NCBI GenBank assembly: GCA_028704555.1 | Contig: JAQWFD010000007.1 | Location: 10,764-74,763 of the forward strand | Source: Desulfobacterales bacterium | Lineage (GTDB): Bacteria; Desulfobacterota; Desulfobacteria; Desulfobacterales; JAQWFD01 | Length of the DNA: 64,000 nucleotides | Direction: 5' to 3' | Part shown: positions 20,203 to 63,511 of the stretch, in pieces | How the letters are laid out: every line of letters starts with the position of its first letter | How positions within the stretch are numbered: position 1 is the stretch's first letter | Notes under the pieces: model-generated | The model's database searches: none | Told to the model about the DNA's origin: nothing | The model's input: only the letters and a program-made list of their open reading frames with translations | Program-made: the position numbers and the translations under genes

Positions 20203-20320
20203 TCAGTAAATGTTCCTGTCCGATAGAAATCCCCCGAATCTTCATAGCATTTCCAGTTTATAGGCGGTCGAAAATATTAACCGCGTGTTTTTTTACTCAT
20301 ATTTCCAAGAAGGAGGCCTT

Positions 20321-21625
20321 ATGAAAAGATCCATGTGTGTCGCGTTAATGATGGGCTTGTTGATGATGACGGGAAGTTTCAGCCCGGTGGTTGCAGCTGA
20401 AACGGCTGAAAAGGTCGAAGTCTGTATTACCTGTCATAACCGAATGAGCCCGGGGCAGGTTGCGGACTGGAAATCCAGTAAACATGCGGCAGAGGGCATT
20501 ACCTGCTCAGCCTGCCATGGGGATGCACATAAGGGGCCGGCGAGTGTGGAAAAAGCGGTGCTGCCGGATGAACAGGTTTGTGCCGAGTGCCATGAAGATA
20601 AGTTTAACCAGTTTGTAAAAGGAAAACATAATCTGGGATGGGACACGTTGAACGCGATGCCCGTTACCCATGTGGAACCGGATGAATTGATGGAAGGCGG
20701 CAAAGGTTGCGGCGGATGTCATAACATGGGAATTAAGAGCGATGAAGAGAGAAAAAAACTTCATGACAGCGGCTACCGGTATCAGAATAATTCCTGTGAT
20801 GAATGTCATACCCGCCACAGTTTTTCCAGAAAGGAAGCGCTTCACCCGGCGGCCTGTCAGCAATGCCACATGGGATTTGATCATCCCCAATGGGAAATGT
20901 GGAGCAGCTCCAAGCACGGGACACGATGGAAAGCCAAGATCTCGGGTATGTTGCCAGAAACTGCGAATGCGCCAAAATGCCAGGATTGCCATATGCCGGG
21001 TGGGTCTCATGAAAACCACACCGCCTGGGGCTTTCTGGGCGTACGCCTTCCGTTGCCTGAAGATCCCCAGTGGGCTGCGGATCGGGTGACCATCCTTAAG
21101 GCCCTGGGCGTTTTGAATCCGCAAACCGGAGAACCCACTGCCCGGCTTGATGCGGTTAAAACCCTTGACCTGGCTCGGCTGACCGCAGAGTCCTGGGAAA
21201 AAGAGCGGGCGAAAATGATAAAAACCTGCCGCAACTGTCATTCCGAACAATACGCCAGAAAGCAGCTTGAAATGGGGGATGCCATCATGCAAAAAGCCGA
21301 CCGGCTCATGGCCGAAGCCATTGAAACCGTGGCAGCGCTTTATCGTGACGGCATTCTCAAAAAACCGGATGCGTATGCCTTTGCCTATCCGGATCTTCTG
21401 TATTTCATGCGAACCGGGGGCGGGAACCTGAATCAGGCATCCCATATCGATCAGATGCTGCTGGAAATGTATCTGAAAGACCGGATGCGGACGTATCAGG
21501 CCTTTTTCCATGTCAATCCCGATTATGCATACTGGTATGGCTGGGCCATGATGACCGAAAAACTGACCGCCATAAAGGAAAAGGCGGTCGTGCTCAGAAA
21601 ATTGCATGAACCGGCGAAAGAATAG
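20321..21625 (+). CDS. periplasmic octaheme c-type cytochrome, hydroxylamine oxidoreductase (HAO) family-like
   Basis: Eight CxxCH motifs (CITCH, CSACH, CAECH, CGGCH, CDECH, CQQCH, CQDCH, CRNCH) and a Sec signal MKRSMCVALMMGLLMMTGSFSPVVA. I chose the start at Met13 of the tracked ORF, behind GAAGGAGG. The HAO-family assignment is from memory of size and heme spacing. Confidence 0.7.
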   Translation: MKRSMCVALMMGLLMMTGSFSPVVAAETAEKVEVCITCHNRMSPGQVADWKSSKHAAEGITCSACHGDAHKGPASVEKAVLPDEQVCAECHEDKFNQFVKGKHNLGWDTLNAMPVTHVEPDELMEGGKGCGGCHNMGIKSDEERKKLHDSGYRYQNNSCDECHTRHSFSRKEALHPAACQQCHMGFDHPQWEMWSSSKHGTRWKAKISGMLPETANAPKCQDCHMPGGSHENHTAWGFLGVRLPLPEDPQWAADRVTILKALGVLNPQTGEPTARLDAVKTLDLARLTAESWEKERAKMIKTCRNCHSEQYARKQLEMGDAIMQKADRLMAEAIETVAALYRDGILKKPDAYAFAYPDLLYFMRTGGGNLNQASHIDQMLLEMYLKDRMRTYQAFFHVNPDYAYWYGWAMMTEKLTAIKEKAVVLRKLHEPAKE

Positions 21626-46591: not shown

Positions 46592-47158
46592 TTACAAAAG
46601 TCGATAGGGATATGCGCGTTGGGTCCATTCATCGTTAGGAAATTCATCCGTTAACTGCTCGTAGGCTTTTTTGAGAAACCCAGCGTCATTGGATTGTTTA
46701 TACAGGGTTACTCCCTGAAGGTATATGCCTTCAGGGGCTGACCGGGTGGACGGGAAATCTGATAGAAGATTTTTCAGATTTTCAAGGGCCCCATTGAATT
46801 GATCGTGGTCAAAATCTATTTTGGCAATCCCCAGCAGCATGGAGGCCATAAATTCATCCGCTTTAAGAAACCCCACGGTTCGATGATGTTCTTTCCCGTC
46901 ATAATCGAGCGTGACGATCGTCGGCGTCCATTTGACGTTAAAATCACCAGCTGTCGGCTGCGCATCATACCTTACGCGAAGGGGTATCATGTGATCGCTG
47001 ATAAAAGAAATAACCGAAGACTCGGGATACGTAACCGTATCCATCTGTTGACATCCGATTCAGTCCGGATTGAAAAAATCCAGCAGAATCGGTTTGAACT
47101 CGGATTTGGCTTTTTTCAATGCATCATTCATTTGTTTTTCCCACATCATCTTTTTCAT
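46592..47158 (-). CDS. thioredoxin-fold selenoprotein (UxxC), 188 codons with in-frame UGA at codon 33
   Basis: The frame continues upstream of the tracked ORF. ATG at 47158-47156 sits behind AAGGAG and reads MKKMMWEKQMNDALKKAKSEFKPILLDFFNPD, then TGA (47062-47060), then IGCQQMDTVTYPE. The hairpin GGAUACG-GUUA-CGUAUCC (47042-47025) starts 17 nt after the UGA. Confidence 0.7.
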
Positions 47159-47171
47159 GGCAGATCTCCTT

Positions 47172-47423
47172 GGTTAAGGGTTAAGGGTTAAGGGTTAAGG
47201 GTTGATGGCTAATGGCTAATGGCTGAGGGTTGAAGGGTTAAAGGCTTTCCGACTCATGACTGAAGACTCCCGACTGGAGACTCCCGACTGGAGACTCCCG
47301 ACTGGAGACTCCCGACTGGAGACTCACGACTGGAGACTCACGACTGGAGACTCACGACTGGAGACTCACGACCGAAGACTCTCGACTCCCGACTCACGAC
47401 CGAAGACTCACGACTCTTGACTG
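47172..47423. repeat. large tandem array: about 10 heptamer units (GGTTAAG x4 and variants) plus twelve 14-bp units (GACTCCCGACTGGA x4, GACTCACGACTGGA x3 and variants)
   Basis: Units counted directly. Heptamers span 47172-47243 and 14-mers span 47251-47418, with a partial unit ending at 47423. The array fills the spacer between the CBS gene stop and the selenoprotein gene Shine-Dalgarno. Confidence 0.9.
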
Positions 47424-58049: not shown

Positions 58050-59030
58050 GTGATTGTTGAAGAATTAACCCGACGGGTTGAGGAAAAACATGCGCTGGTC
58101 AACAGCATTAAAAGCGAAATCCGGAAGGTGCTGGTCGGGCAGTCAGCCTTGATTGACGGGCTTTTGATCGGCTTGTTTACCAAGGGGCATGTGCTGATTG
58201 AGGGGGTTCCGGGTCTGGCCAAAACCAGCGCGGTAATGGCGCTGGCCAATACGGTCCAGGCCGGTTTCAAGCGGATTCAGTTTACCCCGGATCTGCTTCC
58301 GGCCGATTTGATCGGAACGGAGGTTTTCCGTCCCAAAACCGCTGATTTTGTCATCAAAAAAGGACCGGTGTTCAACAATATCATTCTTGCTGACGAAATC
58401 AACCGGGCCCCGTCCAAAGTACAATCCGCACTGCTGGAAGCCATGCAGGAGCGGCAGGTGACCATCGGTGACCATACGTTTCCGCTTCCGGATCCGTTTC
58501 TCGTTCTGGCCACCCAGAATCCAATCGAGCAGGAAGGTACCTATCCGCTTCCCGAAGCACAGGTGGACCGGTTCATGCTCAAGATTCTGATCGATTACCC
58601 GGATAAAAGCGAAGAAAAAGAGATCATGAAGCGGGTCGGGTTTGATGCCCCGTCAGAAGTCCGGCAGATGATCACGCATGAACAGGTCAACGAAATTGCT
58701 TCCCTGATCAAAGAAATCTACATGGATGAAAAGCTCAAAGACTATATCGTGGATCTGGTGTTTGCCACCCGGAATCCTAAAGACTATAACATTGATATCG
58801 CCGAATATATCCAGTTCGGCGCTTCCCCCCGGGCGACGATTTTTCTGAGCCTGGCTGCCCGGGCCTATGCGTTTTTGCAGGGAAGGGCGTACGTGACGCC
58901 GCAGGATATAAAAACCGTGGCTCCGGATGTCCTGCGGCATCGGATTATTCTGACCTATGAGGCGGAGGCCGAAGATATTACCACGGAGCAGATTATCGGC
59001 CATGTGTTTGATTCTGTTGAAGTGCCCTGA
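58050..59030 (+). CDS. MoxR-family AAA+ ATPase
   Basis: GTG start. GHVLIEGVPGLAKT (Walker A), ILADEINRAPSKVQSALLEAMQE (Walker B/sensor), LATQNPIEQEGTYPLPEAQVDRF. Confidence 0.9.
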   Translation: MIVEELTRRVEEKHALVNSIKSEIRKVLVGQSALIDGLLIGLFTKGHVLIEGVPGLAKTSAVMALANTVQAGFKRIQFTPDLLPADLIGTEVFRPKTADFVIKKGPVFNNIILADEINRAPSKVQSALLEAMQERQVTIGDHTFPLPDPFLVLATQNPIEQEGTYPLPEAQVDRFMLKILIDYPDKSEEKEIMKRVGFDAPSEVRQMITHEQVNEIASLIKEIYMDEKLKDYIVDLVFATRNPKDYNIDIAEYIQFGASPRATIFLSLAARAYAFLQGRAYVTPQDIKTVAPDVLRHRIILTYEAEAEDITTEQIIGHVFDSVEVP

Positions 59031-59039
59031 TCCCGGGAA

Positions 59040-59915
59040 TTGAATATGCTTGATCCGGAATTTATAAAAAAAATTAAAAAAATGCACATTAAAACGGGCC
59101 GGATGGTCAATACCATGATGGCCGGTCAATACCGCTCGGTGTTCAGGGGCTCGGGTATCGAATTTGAGGAAGTGCGGGAATATTCCCCCGGCGATGATGT
59201 CAAGAGCATCGACTGGAAAGTCTCTGCACGGATGGGACGCCCGTATGTCAAACTCTACCGTGAGGAACGTGAACTGGTGGTGATGCTTCTGGTGGATATG
59301 AGTGCATCCGGAAGTTTTGGAACCACCGGTAGTATCAAACGGGAAGCTGCTGCGGAAATTGCCGGTGTCCTGGCCTTTAATGCCATAAAGAATAATGATA
59401 AGGTCGGCGCCGTTTTATTTACCGACCGGGTTGAAAAATATATCCCTCCGAAAAAAGGCTCGGCCCATGTCTGGCGGGTGATCAGGGAAATTTTTTCGTT
59501 TGAGCCTCAACACCGGCAGACCGACATCCAGAGCGCGGTCCGGTATCTGGGCAGAGTGTGCCGCAAAAAAACCGTATCATTTCTGATATCCGATTTTCTG
59601 TCCCCTGAATATATTCGCCAGTTGAAAATTGTGTCCAAAAAACATGAACTCATCGGAATCGTGCTTTCCGATCCCGGTGAATTCAGGCTTCCCGAAGCCG
59701 GAATTCTTTCTGTGGAGGATCTTGAAACCGGAGGGACGGCGATGCTGGATGCTTCCGATGCCAACACGCGCAAGTTGTTTGCGCAGCAGACCATCTGCGC
59801 GTACCGAACGAATCTGGACAGGCTCAAATCGGCAGATATTGATTACGTGGAGATCAGCACCTCGGACCATGTGGTGGACCCGTTGCTCCGATATTTCCGG
59901 GCAAGGGGAAAATGA
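59040..59915 (+). CDS. DUF58 (vWA-like) protein, MoxR partner
   Basis: GIEFEEVREYSPGDDVKSIDWKVSARMGRPYVKLYREERE and LLVDMSASG. Confidence 0.85.
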   Translation: MNMLDPEFIKKIKKMHIKTGRMVNTMMAGQYRSVFRGSGIEFEEVREYSPGDDVKSIDWKVSARMGRPYVKLYREERELVVMLLVDMSASGSFGTTGSIKREAAAEIAGVLAFNAIKNNDKVGAVLFTDRVEKYIPPKKGSAHVWRVIREIFSFEPQHRQTDIQSAVRYLGRVCRKKTVSFLISDFLSPEYIRQLKIVSKKHELIGIVLSDPGEFRLPEAGILSVEDLETGGTAMLDASDANTRKLFAQQTICAYRTNLDRLKSADIDYVEISTSDHVVDPLLRYFRARGK

Positions 59916-59948
59916 TAAAAAAGCAACCCAGACAACTCAAAGATCCCG

Positions 59949-60635
59949 ATGAACTCAAAGAACCCCATAACCCTGATAATGATCCTGATGGTCATGCTTG
60001 GCAGCCTGGCTGCAGCCGCGGCGGAACCCGCTGTTGATCCGGCGATCGATCCGGCTGCCATATCTCAAAGCAACGCTTTAACAGATCAGGCACAATCATC
60101 TGATATATATGATATAAAACCGATAGAGAAAATTGGATTTAATTCGGACTATATTCGATATACGGTTTATGCCGCCCTTGCGATTGCGGGCCTTGCCCTG
60201 ATCTCAGCCGTGTTGATTTTCTGGAATAAATGGCGCCGGAAGCCGGTTCAGGATGTTGTCGCACACCTTTGCCCGAAGGAGGAAGCGTTTCAGCTGCTGG
60301 ATCAGGCCGCTGATCTGATGAATACGGACGGACGGCAGTTTTATTTTCAGCTGTCCATGATACTGAGGGGCTATATTGATAAAAGATTTGATATCGATGC
60401 GGTTGAAATGACGACAGAAGAACTCATTCCCTGCATCGTTCAGTTGCGTCTTGACACGGACCTGCAGCGCGGGGTGAAGGAATTTTTCAACGCGAGTGAC
60501 CCCGTAAAGTTTGCCGGTTTTACACCGGATCGGCTCTTGATGGCAGCGCATCTTGAATTTGTAAAAAACTTTGTGAAAGCGACAGCCCCCGCGGACTTAG
60601 AGGACAGTGGCCAACCCTTAACCCTTAACCAATAA
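59949..60635 (+). CDS. DUF4381-like membrane protein of Bat operons
   Basis: Position between DUF58 and BatA, one central TM helix followed by WRRKP..A...L, and a C-terminal DPVKFAG motif. The last codons are encoded by CCCTTAA heptamer repeats. Confidence 0.6.
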   Translation: MNSKNPITLIMILMVMLGSLAAAAAEPAVDPAIDPAAISQSNALTDQAQSSDIYDIKPIEKIGFNSDYIRYTVYAALAIAGLALISAVLIFWNKWRRKPVQDVVAHLCPKEEAFQLLDQAADLMNTDGRQFYFQLSMILRGYIDKRFDIDAVEMTTEELIPCIVQLRLDTDLQRGVKEFFNASDPVKFAGFTPDRLLMAAHLEFVKNFVKATAPADLEDSGQPLTLNQ

Positions 60636-60644
60636 CAGATAACC

Positions 60645-61643
60645 ATGTTCCAATTTGCTTCACCCTATTTTTTCCTGTGCCTTCTGGCCATTCCGGTATC
60701 GCTGTATGTGCGCCGGAAGCGGCCGGGGCATCCACGGATGCGGATTTCAAGTCTTTTGCAGGCAAAGGAAATCCGGCCTTCTGGCGTGCTGAAGTTCCAA
60801 TGGATCGTGCCATTTTTGAAATATGCCGCCCTGGTGCTGATGATTGTGGCGATTGCCAGGCCCCAGTGGGGGACCCGGCAGCTCAGCGTGAAAACCGAGG
60901 GGATTAATATCATACTGGCGGTCGACCTTTCCGAGAGCATGGCAGCGCTGGATTTTAAGCGAAAAGGGGAGATCGTCAACCGCCTGGAAGCGGTCAAAGG
61001 GGTTGTGGAGGACTTTGTCGGCAAGCGAAACGGTGACCGTATCGGCATGGTTGTATTCGGGTCCAATGCCTATACGCAACTGCCCCTGACCCGCGATTAC
61101 ACCACCATCGTATCGATTCTGGAACGGTTGAAGATCGGTGCGGCAGGCAAGGCCACCGCTATCGGGGATGCCCTTGGGATCTCCCTCAAGCGTCTGGAGG
61201 ATATCCCGGGCAAATCCAATGTCATTATTCTCCTGACCGACGGACAGAGCAATACCGGGGAGCTGTCTCCGCAGACGGCCGCTGAAATTGCCGTTCAAAA
61301 ATCGGTTAAAGTGTATACCATCGGCGTCGGCAGCCGGGGAAGGGCTCCTTTTCTGATCAATCATCCCGTCTTTGGCGAGCGCTACGTGTATCAGCAGGTC
61401 GATATTGATGAAGATACATTGAAAGATATCGCATCGAAAACCGATGGCCTGTATTTCCGGGCTGAAAATACCGAAGGGCTTGAGCAGATTTATGATACGA
61501 TTGACCAGTTGGAAAAAACCGAGGTAACGGTCAAAACCTTTGCAGAATACCGGGAGCTTTACTTCTGGTTTCTGCTCACGGGCGTCTGCCTGCTCATGCT
61601 CCGGATGGTGCTGACCCATACGCGATTTTTGAGGATACCATGA
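60645..61643 (+). CDS. batA: VWA-domain membrane protein BatA
   Basis: N-terminal TM helices, MIDAS motif ILAVDLSESM, LLTDGQSNTG and a C-terminal TM helix. Confidence 0.8.
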   Translation: MFQFASPYFFLCLLAIPVSLYVRRKRPGHPRMRISSLLQAKEIRPSGVLKFQWIVPFLKYAALVLMIVAIARPQWGTRQLSVKTEGINIILAVDLSESMAALDFKRKGEIVNRLEAVKGVVEDFVGKRNGDRIGMVVFGSNAYTQLPLTRDYTTIVSILERLKIGAAGKATAIGDALGISLKRLEDIPGKSNVIILLTDGQSNTGELSPQTAAEIAVQKSVKVYTIGVGSRGRAPFLINHPVFGERYVYQQVDIDEDTLKDIASKTDGLYFRAENTEGLEQIYDTIDQLEKTEVTVKTFAEYRELYFWFLLTGVCLLMLRMVLTHTRFLRIP

Positions 61644-63511
61644 AATTTGTAAGAATCGAGATGCTGTTTCTGATATGGGTGGTGCCGGTGCTGCTGCTGG
61701 TCTGTATCCTGGGCATGAGAAAACGCAGGGCTGTGTTATCGAAATTTTCATCATTAAAGGGGTTAAGCTGCATTGTTCCGGATGCCGCCGGAAAACGGCG
61801 ATGGGTTAAAACGTTTCTGATGCTCTGCGTGGTGATGTTTGCGTCCGTTGCCCTGTCAGGTCCCCAATACGGCTATAAATGGCAGGAGATCGAACGCAAG
61901 GGGATCGATATCATTATCGCGCTGGACTGCTCCCGAAGCATGCTGGCCGATGACATCAAGCCCACCCGTCTGGACCGGGCCAAGCGCGAGGTGTTTGATC
62001 TTCTCAACATGCTCAGGGGAGACCGTGTGGGGCTGGTCGCGTTTGCCGGCACCGCATTTCTCCAGTGTCCCCTTACGCTCGATTACGAAGCGTTCAACCT
62101 GTTTTTAAATACCCTGACGCCGGATTTTCTGCCGATCGGGGGAACGGATCTGCCGGCGGCGCTTGATACGGCCAGCGCGGCCTTTAATACACAGGATCGC
62201 TCGGAAAAGGCGATCCTCCTGATTACCGATGGTGAAAGCACTGGGGAAAACCCTGAAGAGACCGCGCAGCGGTTGAAAAAAGCCGGCGTGAAGCTGTTTT
62301 GTGTCGGAGTGGGCAAACCCGAAGGCGTTCCGGTGCCGGACCCGAAAGGCGGGTTCAAAAAAGATGCATCGGGCAGCATCGTATTGACGCGGCTGGATGA
62401 AAAGACGCTGCAAACCCTATCTGTTCTGACCGGAGGAGCCTATGTCCGCTCGGTTGCCGGCGATATGGATCTGGATGTAATTTATTCCAGGGAAATTCGG
62501 GGAAAAATGGAAGCCTCCACGGTATCGGGCGGAAGAAAACAAGTCTGGGAAGACCGTTACCAGTGGCCCCTGGCCCTGGCGATCATCGCATTTATCATAG
62601 AGCTGTTTCTTCCCTCAGTCCGCGCCGGGGTGGCGATAGTTGTCATGGGTATGGTCTTGCTCAATGGGCCTGTCGCTGAAGCGCAGAGCCTGAACCGGAG
62701 TCTGCAAAACGGTGTTAAAGCCTATGAAACCGGTGAATACGAAACCGCGTTAAAACAATTTATAGATGCCCAGCTCAAAGCCCCGGACCGTCCCGAGCTC
62801 TATTATAATATCGGCAATACCTATTACCGGATCGATGACTTTGAATCGGCCGGGCAGAATTACAAACAGGCCCTGAGCAGTGAAAACCCTCAGATCCGGC
62901 AAAAGGCGTATTATAATCTCGGAAATGTGCAATATCGAACCGGGAACTACCCGGAGGCCGTATCCTCTTATGAACAGGCGCTGAAACTGGACCCGAACGA
63001 TGAACAGGCCAGTGCCAATATGCAATTTGTCAAAAAAGTCATGCAGCAGCAGAAAGAGCAGAAGTCGCCACCCGGATCGAATGATGGCAGCAAACAGAAA
63101 AAAAAGGAGGGTGATGCTTCCGAAAATCCGGATCGGGGCGCCGGGGATAAACCGCAGGAAGGACAGCCATCCGGTGATAAGGAAAATTCATCAGATAAGA
63201 AAAATACATCCGGCTCCGGTCAGCAGCAGAATGAAAATGAGCAGGATGTCCCGGATTACGGCAGCCGCATGAATGATGACCGGAAACCCGAGCCTCAGAG
63301 CAAAGCCGGTCCCGCCGGCAGGCCGGATGATAAAACCGGTGACGACCGGCAGCAGTCTTCCGGCCAGGGCACCGCGGCACAAGCCCGTGATGCAAAGGAA
63401 GACCCGAACGAAAACGGGCAGGCTGAGCGCCTGCTCAACCGGCTCAAGGACATGCCGGGAAAAGCCATGGTGCCGATTTACCAGAAGCGCCAAGTGGAAA
63501 AGGACTGGTGA
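61640..63511 (+). CDS. batB: VWA plus TPR protein BatB (BatB/BatC-like fusion) with acidic low-complexity tail
   Basis: MIDAS motif IIALDCSRSM, LITDGESTG, TPR repeats (YYNIGNTYYRIDDFESAGQNYKQAL, YYNLGNVQYRTGNYPEAVSSYEQALKLDP) and a K/E/D/Q-rich tail. Confidence 0.8.
   Translation: MKFVRIEMLFLIWVVPVLLLVCILGMRKRRAVLSKFSSLKGLSCIVPDAAGKRRWVKTFLMLCVVMFASVALSGPQYGYKWQEIERKGIDIIIALDCSRSMLADDIKPTRLDRAKREVFDLLNMLRGDRVGLVAFAGTAFLQCPLTLDYEAFNLFLNTLTPDFLPIGGTDLPAALDTASAAFNTQDRSEKAILLITDGESTGENPEETAQRLKKAGVKLFCVGVGKPEGVPVPDPKGGFKKDASGSIVLTRLDEKTLQTLSVLTGGAYVRSVAGDMDLDVIYSREIRGKMEASTVSGGRKQVWEDRYQWPLALAIIAFIIELFLPSVRAGVAIVVMGMVLLNGPVAEAQSLNRSLQNGVKAYETGEYETALKQFIDAQLKAPDRPELYYNIGNTYYRIDDFESAGQNYKQALSSENPQIRQKAYYNLGNVQYRTGNYPEAVSSYEQALKLDPNDEQASANMQFVKKVMQQQKEQKSPPGSNDGSKQKKKEGDASENPDRGAGDKPQEGQPSGDKENSSDKKNTSGSGQQQNENEQDVPDYGSRMNDDRKPEPQSKAGPAGRPDDKTGDDRQQSSGQGTAAQARDAKEDPNENGQAERLLNRLKDMPGKAMVPIYQKRQVEKDW

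Follow-up and report, generated by a model that had tools for sequence, protein, structure and literature searches.

A predicted thioredoxin-fold selenoprotein of a known family, truncated in current annotation, in a Desulfobacterales genome

On the minus strand of the window, by which we mean the whole 64-kb stretch of Desulfobacterales DNA that was analysed, a Shine-Dalgarno-like element precedes a 188-codon reading frame that is interrupted by a single in-frame TGA (Table 1). The ATG at 47158-47156 opens a run of 32 sense codons, MKKMMWEKQMNDALKKAKSEFKPILLDFFNPD, and after the TGA at 47062-47060 the frame continues as IGCQQMDTVTYPE... and runs on to a TAA at 46594-46592. The conceptual product, of about 21 kDa, is 188 residues long; the stop falls at residue 33, where the UGA supplies the first position of a U-I-G-C redox motif (47051-47062, minus strand). 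The positions given in a preliminary description of this DNA for the ATG, the AAGGAG, the TGA, the open reading frame at 46592-47044 and a hairpin downstream of the TGA all agree with our re-reading of the minus strand. Homologues begin 3-6 residues ahead of the conserved Trp6, which is consistent with the ATG at 47158-47156 as the start codon.

Table 1. Features of the locus, listed 5' to 3' along the minus strand
Feature	Position	Strand	Basis or remark
Shine-Dalgarno-like AAGGAG	47166..47171	-	7-nt spacer to ATG 47158-47156; read from the sequence
Complete selenoprotein CDS (predicted)	46592..47158	-	188 codons plus TAA stop, Sec at codon 33; translation
Thioredoxin-fold domain, residues ~4-113	46820..47149	-	closest to the C-terminal gamma domain of DsbD
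In-frame UGA, predicted Sec codon (residue 33)	47060..47062	-	column comparison; aligns with published U
150-aa ORF from Met39, truncation artefact of standard callers	46592..47044	-	ORF list
Bacterial SECIS hairpin (predicted), 7-bp stem GGAUACG/CGUAUCC, loop GUUA at 47032-47035	47025..47042	-	folds, covariation, synonymous constraint
cis-Proline loop W-T-P-T	46919-46930	-	inside the thioredoxin-fold domain
C-terminal helical TPR-like domain, residues ~114-188	46595..46819	-	CpoB/YbgF and BamD TPR profile matches

Public records bear out the further claim of that description that standard gene callers truncate the locus. NCBI holds the identical 150-aa product as 'hypothetical protein PHP23_10900', and at a related locus in one assembly (L173) the gene has been called as two, of 32 aa and 150 aa. 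The best database matches are mostly truncations of about 150 aa that carry the names 'hypothetical', 'TPR repeat', 'TolA-binding' or 'BamD', while some pipelines read the UGA of the family as Trp. A search of NCBIfam returned no dedicated model, the top match being the thioredoxin domain of the selenoprotein TsoB with 47 bits where the cutoff is 805, and since NCBIfam is without such a model the truncation error will persist. The present data would suffice for one, with 144 Sec-form sequences that are all unique, a hairpin of 6-7 bp in which two pairs covary, and synonymous sites that do not vary.

Homology extends across the TGA. The Pfam family Thioredoxin_2 (PF13098) matches residues 17-105 with 43.2 bits, above its cutoff of 27, and the leader residues W6, A13, A17 and F28 are conserved among homologues. 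Relatives are encoded in 239 stretches from a genome scan and 434 from a metagenome scan, including DNA from Brocadia, Nitrospirota and Nitrospinota. The carriers include the cultured Hydrosulfovibrio ferrireducens CB1MN (locus L078). The DNA of the relatives retains the 32-codon leader, and none begin at the Met after the UGA, a start that the preliminary description had named as evidence against its own proposal. The alignment check that it proposed, whether Cys falls in the UGA column, likewise came out in its favour: 170 loci were parsed, from Desulfobacterota, Nitrospirota, Brocadia, Nitrospinota and others, a sample skewed towards relatives of the Sec-form query, and the codon is TGA at 162 of them and a Cys codon (TGC/TGT) at 8. 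The 8 Cys loci, whose DNA was obtained protein by protein, represent seven distinct proteins; they translate correctly under code 11, each as a single protein of 185-190 aa. Another 8 full-length proteins from Geobacteraceae/Geomonas, one of them from the isolate Geomonas silvestris, also have Cys in this column, mostly as ECIGC. A metagenome scan seeded with a Cys-only alignment returned almost exclusively TGA loci. On these comparisons, the UGA at codon 33 almost certainly encodes selenocysteine.

The same column bears on two other explanations. A Cys-to-stop nonsense mutation (TGC or TGT to TGA), for which a single third-position transversion suffices, would make the locus a pseudogene with the 32 upstream codons as a decaying remnant; such a history would suit both the 150-aa ORF of the public annotation and a window in which no Sec machinery is visible. 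The TGA, however, recurs in one and the same column across several phyla behind intact, conserved leaders and start codons, and the hairpin downstream of it is held by synonymous-site selection. Because independent decay cannot yield such a multi-phylum pattern, we regard the pseudogene as effectively refuted and give it a negligible probability. The second explanation is an alternative code in which UGA is read as Trp (code 4) or Gly (code 25) and selenium is not involved, as might be taken from the W that several metagenome pipelines put at the Sec column of homologues. At the DNA level this W is a TGA; table 11 does not give the stored W proteins, and one code-4 call also crossed an unrelated upstream TGA. 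Within the window, 16 of the 34 long ORFs end in an ordinary TGA, the commonest stop there, and the column alternates with Cys but never with a real TGG or Gly codon. The organisms concerned belong to Desulfobacterota, Nitrospirota and Brocadia, and to our knowledge neither code 4 nor code 25 has been reported for any of them. Reassignment of UGA is thus extremely unlikely, and we retain selenocysteine as the reading of codon 33.

The hairpin that would direct selenocysteine insertion starts 17 nt past the UGA, within the codons for M-D-T-V-T-Y-P, and is present in both the MFE and the centroid folds. Folding of a 76-nt stretch of the window gave z = -0.79, which is not statistically remarkable, so that a single sequence could not tell the hairpin from chance. 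The comparative signal, made up of conservation, covariation and synonymous-site constraint, is far above chance. An unbiased consensus fold of 144 sequences kept a 6-bp apical hairpin as its sole structure. A longer SECIS element, in which a lower stem would enclose the UGA, appeared in several single-sequence folds; it was absent from this consensus and was rejected. The six core pairs are retained in 138-148 of the 148 unique Sec forms. Pair 24:35 shows no mismatch among these, with U:A in 143 and A:U in 5, and at pair 23:36 a C stands solely opposite G (17/24 vs 0/124; Fisher p = 4e-17, a statistic that ignores kinship). Double-change cells numbered 21, compared with 2.8 +/- 1.4 after shuffling, and 0 of 500 shuffles reached 21, phylogeny not being modelled; pairing amounted to 17-68% in slid registers and to 90.6% in the true one.

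These numbers have to be read against the protein sequence. The stem lies wholly inside conserved codons and part of its conservation is therefore owed to the peptide; the hairpin could in that case be a by-product of a conserved M-D-A/T-V-T-Y-P segment, without a recoding role, and any read-through would have another cause. Four of the seven stem pairs are near-invariant or invariant, and one Cys form (L170) retains the hairpin. Rfam returned no match at the hairpin, either for the whole window at gathering thresholds or for 46950-47110 at E up to 10; as no bacterial SECIS model was evident in Rfam, this outcome is uninformative. Third-codon positions, which are free of protein constraint, are nevertheless locked to the base that pairs: all 95 Asp codons at this site in a 126-sequence set are GAU, compared with 58% elsewhere in the same genes, and the Thr/Ser codon ends in G (NCG) in 147 of 148 sequences, where Thr elsewhere in the same genes does so in 25%. 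About 88% of sequences use GUU as the loop codon, a share that is about 20% for Val elsewhere, the codon UAC occurs solely where the paired base is G, and the swap of pair 24:35 from U:A to A:U accompanies D-to-E plus Y-to-F changes. A fully paired stem survives in 1 of 7 Cys forms, that of L170, despite similar peptides. Together with a geometry and a loop that agree with the published model for such elements, this leaves the by-product explanation with very little probability, and we take the hairpin to be a predicted bacterial SECIS element.

That model, the bSECISearch consensus (Zhang & Gladyshev 2005), is summarised in Fig. 2 of PMC13188914; its criteria include 3-9 nt for the apical loop, 4-16 bp for the upper stem and an MFE <= -7.5 kcal/mol. 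The window hairpin agrees with the model on all four published criteria. Its stem has 7 bp and its loop 4 nt, and the stem has 6-7 bp in 133/144 family sequences; the loop sequence GUUA, with G-U first, conforms to the loop criterion, as do the loops of 134/144 members. The remaining 10/144 have one internal C-U mismatch (a GCU Ala codon), where stem parsing halted. The distance from UGA to loop is 24 nt in the window and 23-24 nt in 133/144 members. The window hairpin alone has a folding energy of -10.4 kcal/mol, and the stretch from the UGA to +41 reaches -7.5 or below in 141/144. The preliminary description had spoken of a SECIS-like hairpin, a claim strengthened here by conservation, by compensatory changes and by the fit to the bacterial model.

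The protein encoded across the UGA would consist of two domains. For the thioredoxin-fold part, a PDB profile search returned the C-terminal domain of DsbD with E about 2e-9 and the entry 2kuc with E = 3e-10, and the residues K76, W77, T78, P79 and T80 are invariant among homologues. The AlphaFold model, which is of a Cys homologue with 50% identity and not of the window protein itself, has a pLDDT of 93.8, and a Foldseek search with it gave DsbD gamma at 28% identity and 2.5 Å rmsd. In the same model the TPR-like domain comprises four to five helices; the TPR and YfiO matches in Pfam are weak, every one below its cutoff.

This architecture can be set against a reading in which the UGA is a real stop and the locus yields two products, a 32-residue peptide and a separate 150-residue TPR-type protein initiated at AUG 47044. 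Gene callers output precisely such a split, the C-terminal part weakly resembles the TPR domains of CpoB/YbgF and BamD, and bacterial Sec-UGA codons normally show some termination. A start at Met39, however, would sever the thioredoxin fold after strand beta-1 and drop the first redox residue, and AUG 47044 has no Shine-Dalgarno sequence, the upstream bases being AUCGGAUGUCAACAG. The scores against the BamD and YbgF models lie far under their cutoffs, and the Cys forms are one uninterrupted protein. We therefore consider two separate products very improbable. It is highly likely, in our judgement, that a single gene at this locus encodes a two-domain selenoprotein of 188 residues, its UGA recoded by means of the SECIS element.

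In the mechanism we propose, the UGA at codon 33 would be recoded to selenocysteine during translation, the hairpin serving as its bacterial-type SECIS. If the process follows the one established for bacteria, this element would bring SelB, loaded with GTP and Sec-tRNA(Sec), to a ribosome that has stalled on the UGA. The DsbD-gamma-like thioredoxin fold would then bear a Sec33-Ile-Gly-Cys36 redox centre, followed by the C-terminal TPR-like helical domain. The N-terminus is charged and non-hydrophobic, and the location of the protein is probably cytoplasmic. The mature protein is most likely a thiol/selenol-disulfide oxidoreductase. Sec33, at the N-terminus of helix alpha-1, would act as the attacking nucleophile, and the intermediate would be resolved by Cys36 via a selenenylsulfide. 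Binding of partners or substrates is a plausible task of the TPR-like domain.

Within the 64-kb window we found neither selA, selB or selD, the 20 ORFs of plausible size or position being unrelated proteins, nor a tRNA-Sec. No second selenoprotein gene was recognised there either, and the 88 TGA-bridged ORF pairs of the window are adjacent genes or non-coding frames. There is no conserved gene neighbour: the commonest neighbour family occurs at 11 of 170 loci, and no particular cellular role is backed by conserved neighbours. Thioredoxin reductase and a DUF255-type protein appear as sporadic neighbours, too rare for interpretation.

As to a wider role, one may speculate that this is a Sec-dependent cytoplasmic thioredoxin-TPR redox protein that docks on client or chaperone proteins through its TPR-like domain, as in CnoX, and belongs to the core redox toolkit of strict anaerobes. 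What speaks specifically for this is the domain architecture and the breadth of the family, which takes in Brocadia anammox bacteria, Nitrospirota, Nitrospinota and many Desulfobacterota, and we hold it to be rather unlikely.

Comparison with proteins of solved structure places the thioredoxin-fold domain closest to the gamma domain of DsbD (PDB codes 1uc7, 2fwe and 1vrs), the best solved fold for residues ~4-113, with the CxxC and UxxC centres equally placed. This resemblance is presumably the source of the historical name of the family. DsbD is a membrane protein of ~570 residues whose gamma domain is periplasmic. It combines three domains, a periplasmic alpha, a transmembrane beta and a thioredoxin-like gamma domain, whereas the 188-aa window protein has only a gamma-like domain and a TPR-like tail. 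An assignment as DsbD proper was rejected: the protein scores 39.2 bits against an NCBIfam cutoff of 330, and Pfam finds no DsbD membrane domain in it.

The same order of domains, a thioredoxin fold followed by TPR-type helices in a soluble protein, is found in the chaperedoxin YbbN/CnoX of E. coli and Salmonella (PDB codes 3qou and 3qdn), with which Foldseek aligned ~200 columns at E about 1e-5 to 3e-5. Membership in the CnoX family was rejected at an rmsd of 10.7-11.7 Å, a TM-score of 0.41-0.43 and 11-13% identity, with no tie through Pfam or NCBIfam, and the likeness is one of architecture, not of family. E. coli CnoX has an SxxC centre, not UxxC or CxxC. The C-terminal 75 residues weakly match the TPR helices of BamD and CpoB (YbgF), and neither identity holds (YfiO 15.3 vs 25, TIGR03302 17.2 vs 81.4, tol_pal_ybgF 20.8 vs 90.1). 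The window protein is without a lipoprotein signal and the match is limited to the tail of a thioredoxin-fold protein; the BamD and CpoB names in public records are artefacts of truncation at the UGA.

Among known recoding elements, that of E. coli fdhF is ~40 nt long. The window family differs from it in having no conserved lower stem around the UGA. As in the bSECIS model, the element is a hairpin within the coding sequence shortly 3' of the UGA, and the values of the window fall inside the published ranges.

Judged by sequence, the window protein belongs as an orthologue to a selenoprotein family already known, its lineage (a Desulfobacterales MAG) being a different one. The name 'thiol:disulfide interchange protein' was reportedly first used for this family by Kryukov and Gladyshev in 2004 (EMBO Rep 5:538), and catalogues of predicted selenoproteins have included the family since that year. 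The locus is accordingly an annotation correction and not a discovery; it should be annotated as a 188-aa selenoprotein instead of a 150-aa hypothetical protein, and the biology added is slight, a further orthologue in a family whose prediction dates from 2004, from the type of anaerobe where it is expected. The family was counted in 3 genomes in 2006, and Zhang et al. 2006 (PMC1794560) print its sequences in their supplement, where it is called 'thiol:disulfide interchange protein'. It is treated in the reviews PMC13188914 and PMC9312934, of which the former, from 2026, grades it 'predicted with high confidence' and not 'experimentally verified' (PMC13188914). The family is listed with PF13098, a UxxC motif and the exemplar WP_011366075.1 from Geobacter metallireducens. 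The preliminary description was correct in calling UxxC thioredoxin-like selenoproteins an established class, and went less far than the record, which already contains the window's own family.

Traits of the family that the window protein shares are full-length homology, a UGA in the Sec column, homologues with Cys in that column and PF13098. It aligns without gaps with the published members from Geobacter uraniumreducens (55% identity, E = 3e-80, 183 columns) and G. metallireducens (41% identity, E = 1e-60, 188 columns). The Sec column is shared, with FFNPD-UGA-IGCQQMD in the window and FFNPG-U-IGCKQMD in the published sequence. The published family and the window protein have in common a length of 186-190 aa, the motif LLDFFNPxU-I-G-C-x-Q-M-D, the KWTPT and EHHRTVGF blocks and a PY(R/S)LL C-terminus. 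Their hosts are alike as well, anaerobic Deltaproteobacteria/Desulfobacterota, and there is no substantive difference between the two.

On the minus strand of the window (46592-47158), a 188-codon thioredoxin-like frame is interrupted by a UGA, and every feature described for it beforehand, namely the ATG, leader, TGA, continuing frame and hairpin, is present in the sequence. With Cys put in at residue 33, Pfam Thioredoxin_2 matched residues 17-105 (43 bits, cutoff 27), and Thioredoxin_7 and Thioredox_DsbH also matched across the UGA, which therefore interrupts one domain and is not the boundary of two genes. Genome-wide reassignment of UGA is excluded by the use of TGA as the stop of 16 of the 34 window ORFs of at least 250 aa. 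Searches within the 64-kb window found no selA, selB, selD or tRNA-Sec, and no second selenoprotein gene was recognised there.

Features of the window discussed in the text
Feature	Position	Strand	Remarks
Shine-Dalgarno-like AAGGAG	47171-47166	-	7 nt upstream of ATG
Start ATG	47158-47156	-	followed by 32 sense codons
In-frame TGA	47062-47060	-	codon 33 of 188
Hairpin GGAUACG-GUUA-CGUAUCC	47042-47025	-	starts 17 nt past UGA; in MFE and centroid folds
Downstream frame beginning IGCQQMDTVTYPE	ends at TAA 46594-46592	-	translation, 188 codons in total
150-aa ORF	46592-47044	-	sole piece given by mechanical ORF list
Flanking genes			CBS-domain protein upstream; DUF4197 protein, then PAS histidine kinase downstream
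Two tandem arrays	47172-47241 and 47251-47415		most of the spacer between CBS-domain gene and selenoprotein start; 7-nt unit (TTAACCC on the gene's strand), ~10 copies; 14-nt unit, ~12 copies
MoxR-type AAA ATPase, two BatA/VWA-domain proteins, VWA-TPR protein	58050-63511	+	in a run
Multi-haem cytochrome c	20285-21625	+	446 aa

The arrays upstream of the gene are a copy-number-variable repeat in the probable promoter region. Copy numbers are equal in a second assembly encoding an identical protein (L171); a third assembly (L173) has ~7.3 and ~7 copies, and its spacer is 77 nt shorter because of this. Elsewhere in the window, the gene order of the MoxR-BatA run resembles that of the Bacteroides aerotolerance (Bat) operon and appears unrelated to the selenoprotein. 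The cytochrome c is consistent with an anaerobic respiratory lifestyle of the host.

A protein-collection search returned two populations of homologues, full-length proteins of ~189 aa and a far more numerous set, all exactly 150 aa long, found in Desulfobacterales, Nitrospirota, Brocadiales and Tectomicrobia. The latter contains an identical 'hypothetical protein PHP23_10900 [Desulfobacterales bacterium]', and, like the ORF list, bears out the preliminary description's expectation that standard callers truncate the gene. In an alignment of the full-length proteins the second Cys of the motif (C36) was invariant; at the UGA position eight of them have Cys and most of the rest 'W'. The 'W' entries, which come from Logan, JGI and one NCBI assembly, are gene calls under genetic code 4 with TGA as Trp; the DNA underlying three of them (L001, L002 and L003) has TGA at that codon, and at L002 the mis-call also read through an unrelated TGA further upstream, which lengthened the N-terminus. 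In big protein collections, a Sec can lie hidden behind a 'W' that aligns with a redox Cys.

Encoding loci were taken from named genomes (80) and metagenomes (80, Cys-form seed), with seven Cys-form proteins added individually, and 170 of 171 could be parsed. The residue-33 column is TGA in 162 of the 170 and TGC or TGT in 8, so that Cys aligns with the UGA as anticipated, and every locus has the conserved 32-residue leader ahead of this codon. Eight more full-length Geobacteraceae/Geomonas proteins, one from the isolate Geomonas silvestris, have Cys there, mostly as ECIGC. Judged from these alignments, the alternation of TGA and Cys in one column is the classical Sec/Cys signature. One Sec form, on metagenome contig Ga0187785_10013209 (L102:1066-1143), reads U-I-G-W, its otherwise invariant resolving Cys being TGG (Trp); possible readings are an error in sequencing, a copy in decay or a variant with a single selenol.

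No gene neighbour is conserved, the commonest family occurring in 11/170 loci; a thioredoxin-reductase-like neighbour occurs in 6/170, too few for linkage. One Cys-form homologue is followed, ~3 kb downstream, by genes for a thioredoxin and a thioredoxin-reductase-like (Pyr_redox_2) protein (L167:9193-10450). Two genes from another Cys form, L170:3185-4195 encodes a 336-aa AIRS/AIRS_C protein, a domain pair that fits selenophosphate synthetase SelD and equally HypE, ThiL or PurM.

The 76-nt stretch bearing the hairpin folds no better than shuffled sequence (z = -0.79), so a single sequence cannot show the hairpin to be meaningful, and since the stem sits in codons for M-D-A/T-V-T-Y-P, protein conservation alone could mimic structure. 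We therefore tested the hairpin at protein-unconstrained positions across 148 distinct Sec forms, with position 1 being the U of UGA. Pairs 21:38 and 22:37 are G:C in all 148. Pair 23:36 is A:U in 114, G:C in 17, G:U in 7 and a C-U mismatch in 10; pair 24:35 is U:A in 143 and A:U in 5, with zero mismatches; pair 25:34 is G:U in 126 and A:U in 22; and pair 26:33 is formed in 147. C at position 36, a synonymous Tyr change (UAU to UAC), occurs solely with G at position 23 (17/24 versus 0/124; Fisher p = 4e-17, not corrected for phylogeny). The stem Asp codon is GAU in 95/95 cases (126-sequence set), compared with 58% elsewhere in the same genes, the stem Thr/Ser codon ends in G in 147/148 (25% ACG among Thr codons elsewhere), and the loop Val codon is GUU in ~88% (~20% elsewhere). 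Only one of seven unique Cys forms (L170) has a fully paired stem, and only two hold pair 24:35. RNAalifold returned this hairpin alone from 144 unique 78-mers, the lower stem being absent. With the 3' partners of the 7-pair structure in register, 90.6% of cells pair, versus 17-68% when they are slid, and 21 double-change cells were observed versus 2.8 ± 1.4 in shuffles, none of 500 reaching 21.

Published limits for bacterial SECIS elements are a loop of 3-9 nt with G in its first two positions, a stem of 4-16 bp, a UGA-to-loop distance of 16-37 nt and an MFE of -7.5 kcal/mol or lower (PMC13188914). The 4-nt GUUA loop, 7-bp stem, 24-nt spacing and -10.4 kcal/mol of the window hairpin place it within these bounds on all four counts. 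Conservation, covariation, fixed synonymous sites and published criteria all agree with the SECIS-like hairpin originally proposed. A pseudogene is excluded, as TGA, leader and hairpin are conserved across phyla. The Sec/Cys column, homology across the UGA and hairpin conservation support the selenoprotein interpretation, and the gene very probably encodes Sec with a functional SECIS.

Profile searches of PDB sequences matched residues ~4-113 to the DsbD thioredoxin-like gamma domain (E ~2e-9) and the putative disulphide isomerase 2kuc, and residues ~112-184 to TPR domains of CpoB/YbgF and BamD. For a Cys homologue with 50% identity, AlphaFold gave a confident model (pLDDT 93.8, pTM 0.90) of a thioredoxin fold: the first long helix has the redox motif at its N-terminal end, an invariant W-T-P-T cis-proline loop precedes strand beta-3, and 4-5 helices come after. 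Foldseek matched the N-terminal domain to DsbD gamma (28% identity, 2.5 Å rmsd), DsbH and 2kuc; the thioredoxin-plus-TPR protein YbbN/CnoX is alike in architecture only (rmsd ~11 Å). By analogy with thioredoxin-fold chemistry, Sec33 would act as the nucleophile and Cys36 would resolve the intermediate through a selenenylsulfide. The charged, non-hydrophobic N-terminus suggests a cytoplasmic location.

Were the locus instead to encode a separate, BamD/YbgF-like protein of 150 aa, its start would fall mid-thioredoxin fold and without a ribosome-binding site, and its BamD/YbgF scores are far below family cutoffs. Several 150-aa forms (P0121, P0125, P0126, P0022, P0046 and P0090) are named BamD, TolA-binding or tetratricopeptide repeat protein, and 'outer membrane protein assembly factor BamD' and like names occur in NCBI and JGI records, because after truncation the TPR-like tail alone drives naming. 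NCBIfam has no dedicated family model (best match 47 bits, cutoff 805), consistent with the persistence of shortened annotations.

UxxC thioredoxin-like selenoproteins had been called an established class, and the gene's own family proves to be catalogued already. Two reviews on prokaryotic selenoproteins, of 2026 and 2022, include a 'Thiol:disulfide interchange protein' family (PF13098, UxxC, WP_011366075.1, citing Kryukov & Gladyshev 2004), filed under 'predicted with high confidence' and not experimentally verified (PMC13188914, PMC9312934). Zhang et al. 2006 reported it in Syntrophus aciditrophicus, Geobacter metallireducens and G. uraniumreducens, printing the example MIKWETEMSKALARGQAEKRTILLDFFNPGUIGCKQMDAVTYP...MWTPT...EHHRTVGF...PYSLL (PMC1794560). 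The window gene is a mis-annotated further member of this known predicted family; novelty is low, and it is of use chiefly for correcting annotations and for building a model of the family and its SECIS. The G. uraniumreducens and G. metallireducens members align with the window protein over the full length without gaps (55% identity, E = 3e-80, and 41%, E = 1e-60), and the U of the published members falls on the window's UGA, which identifies the gene as an orthologue.
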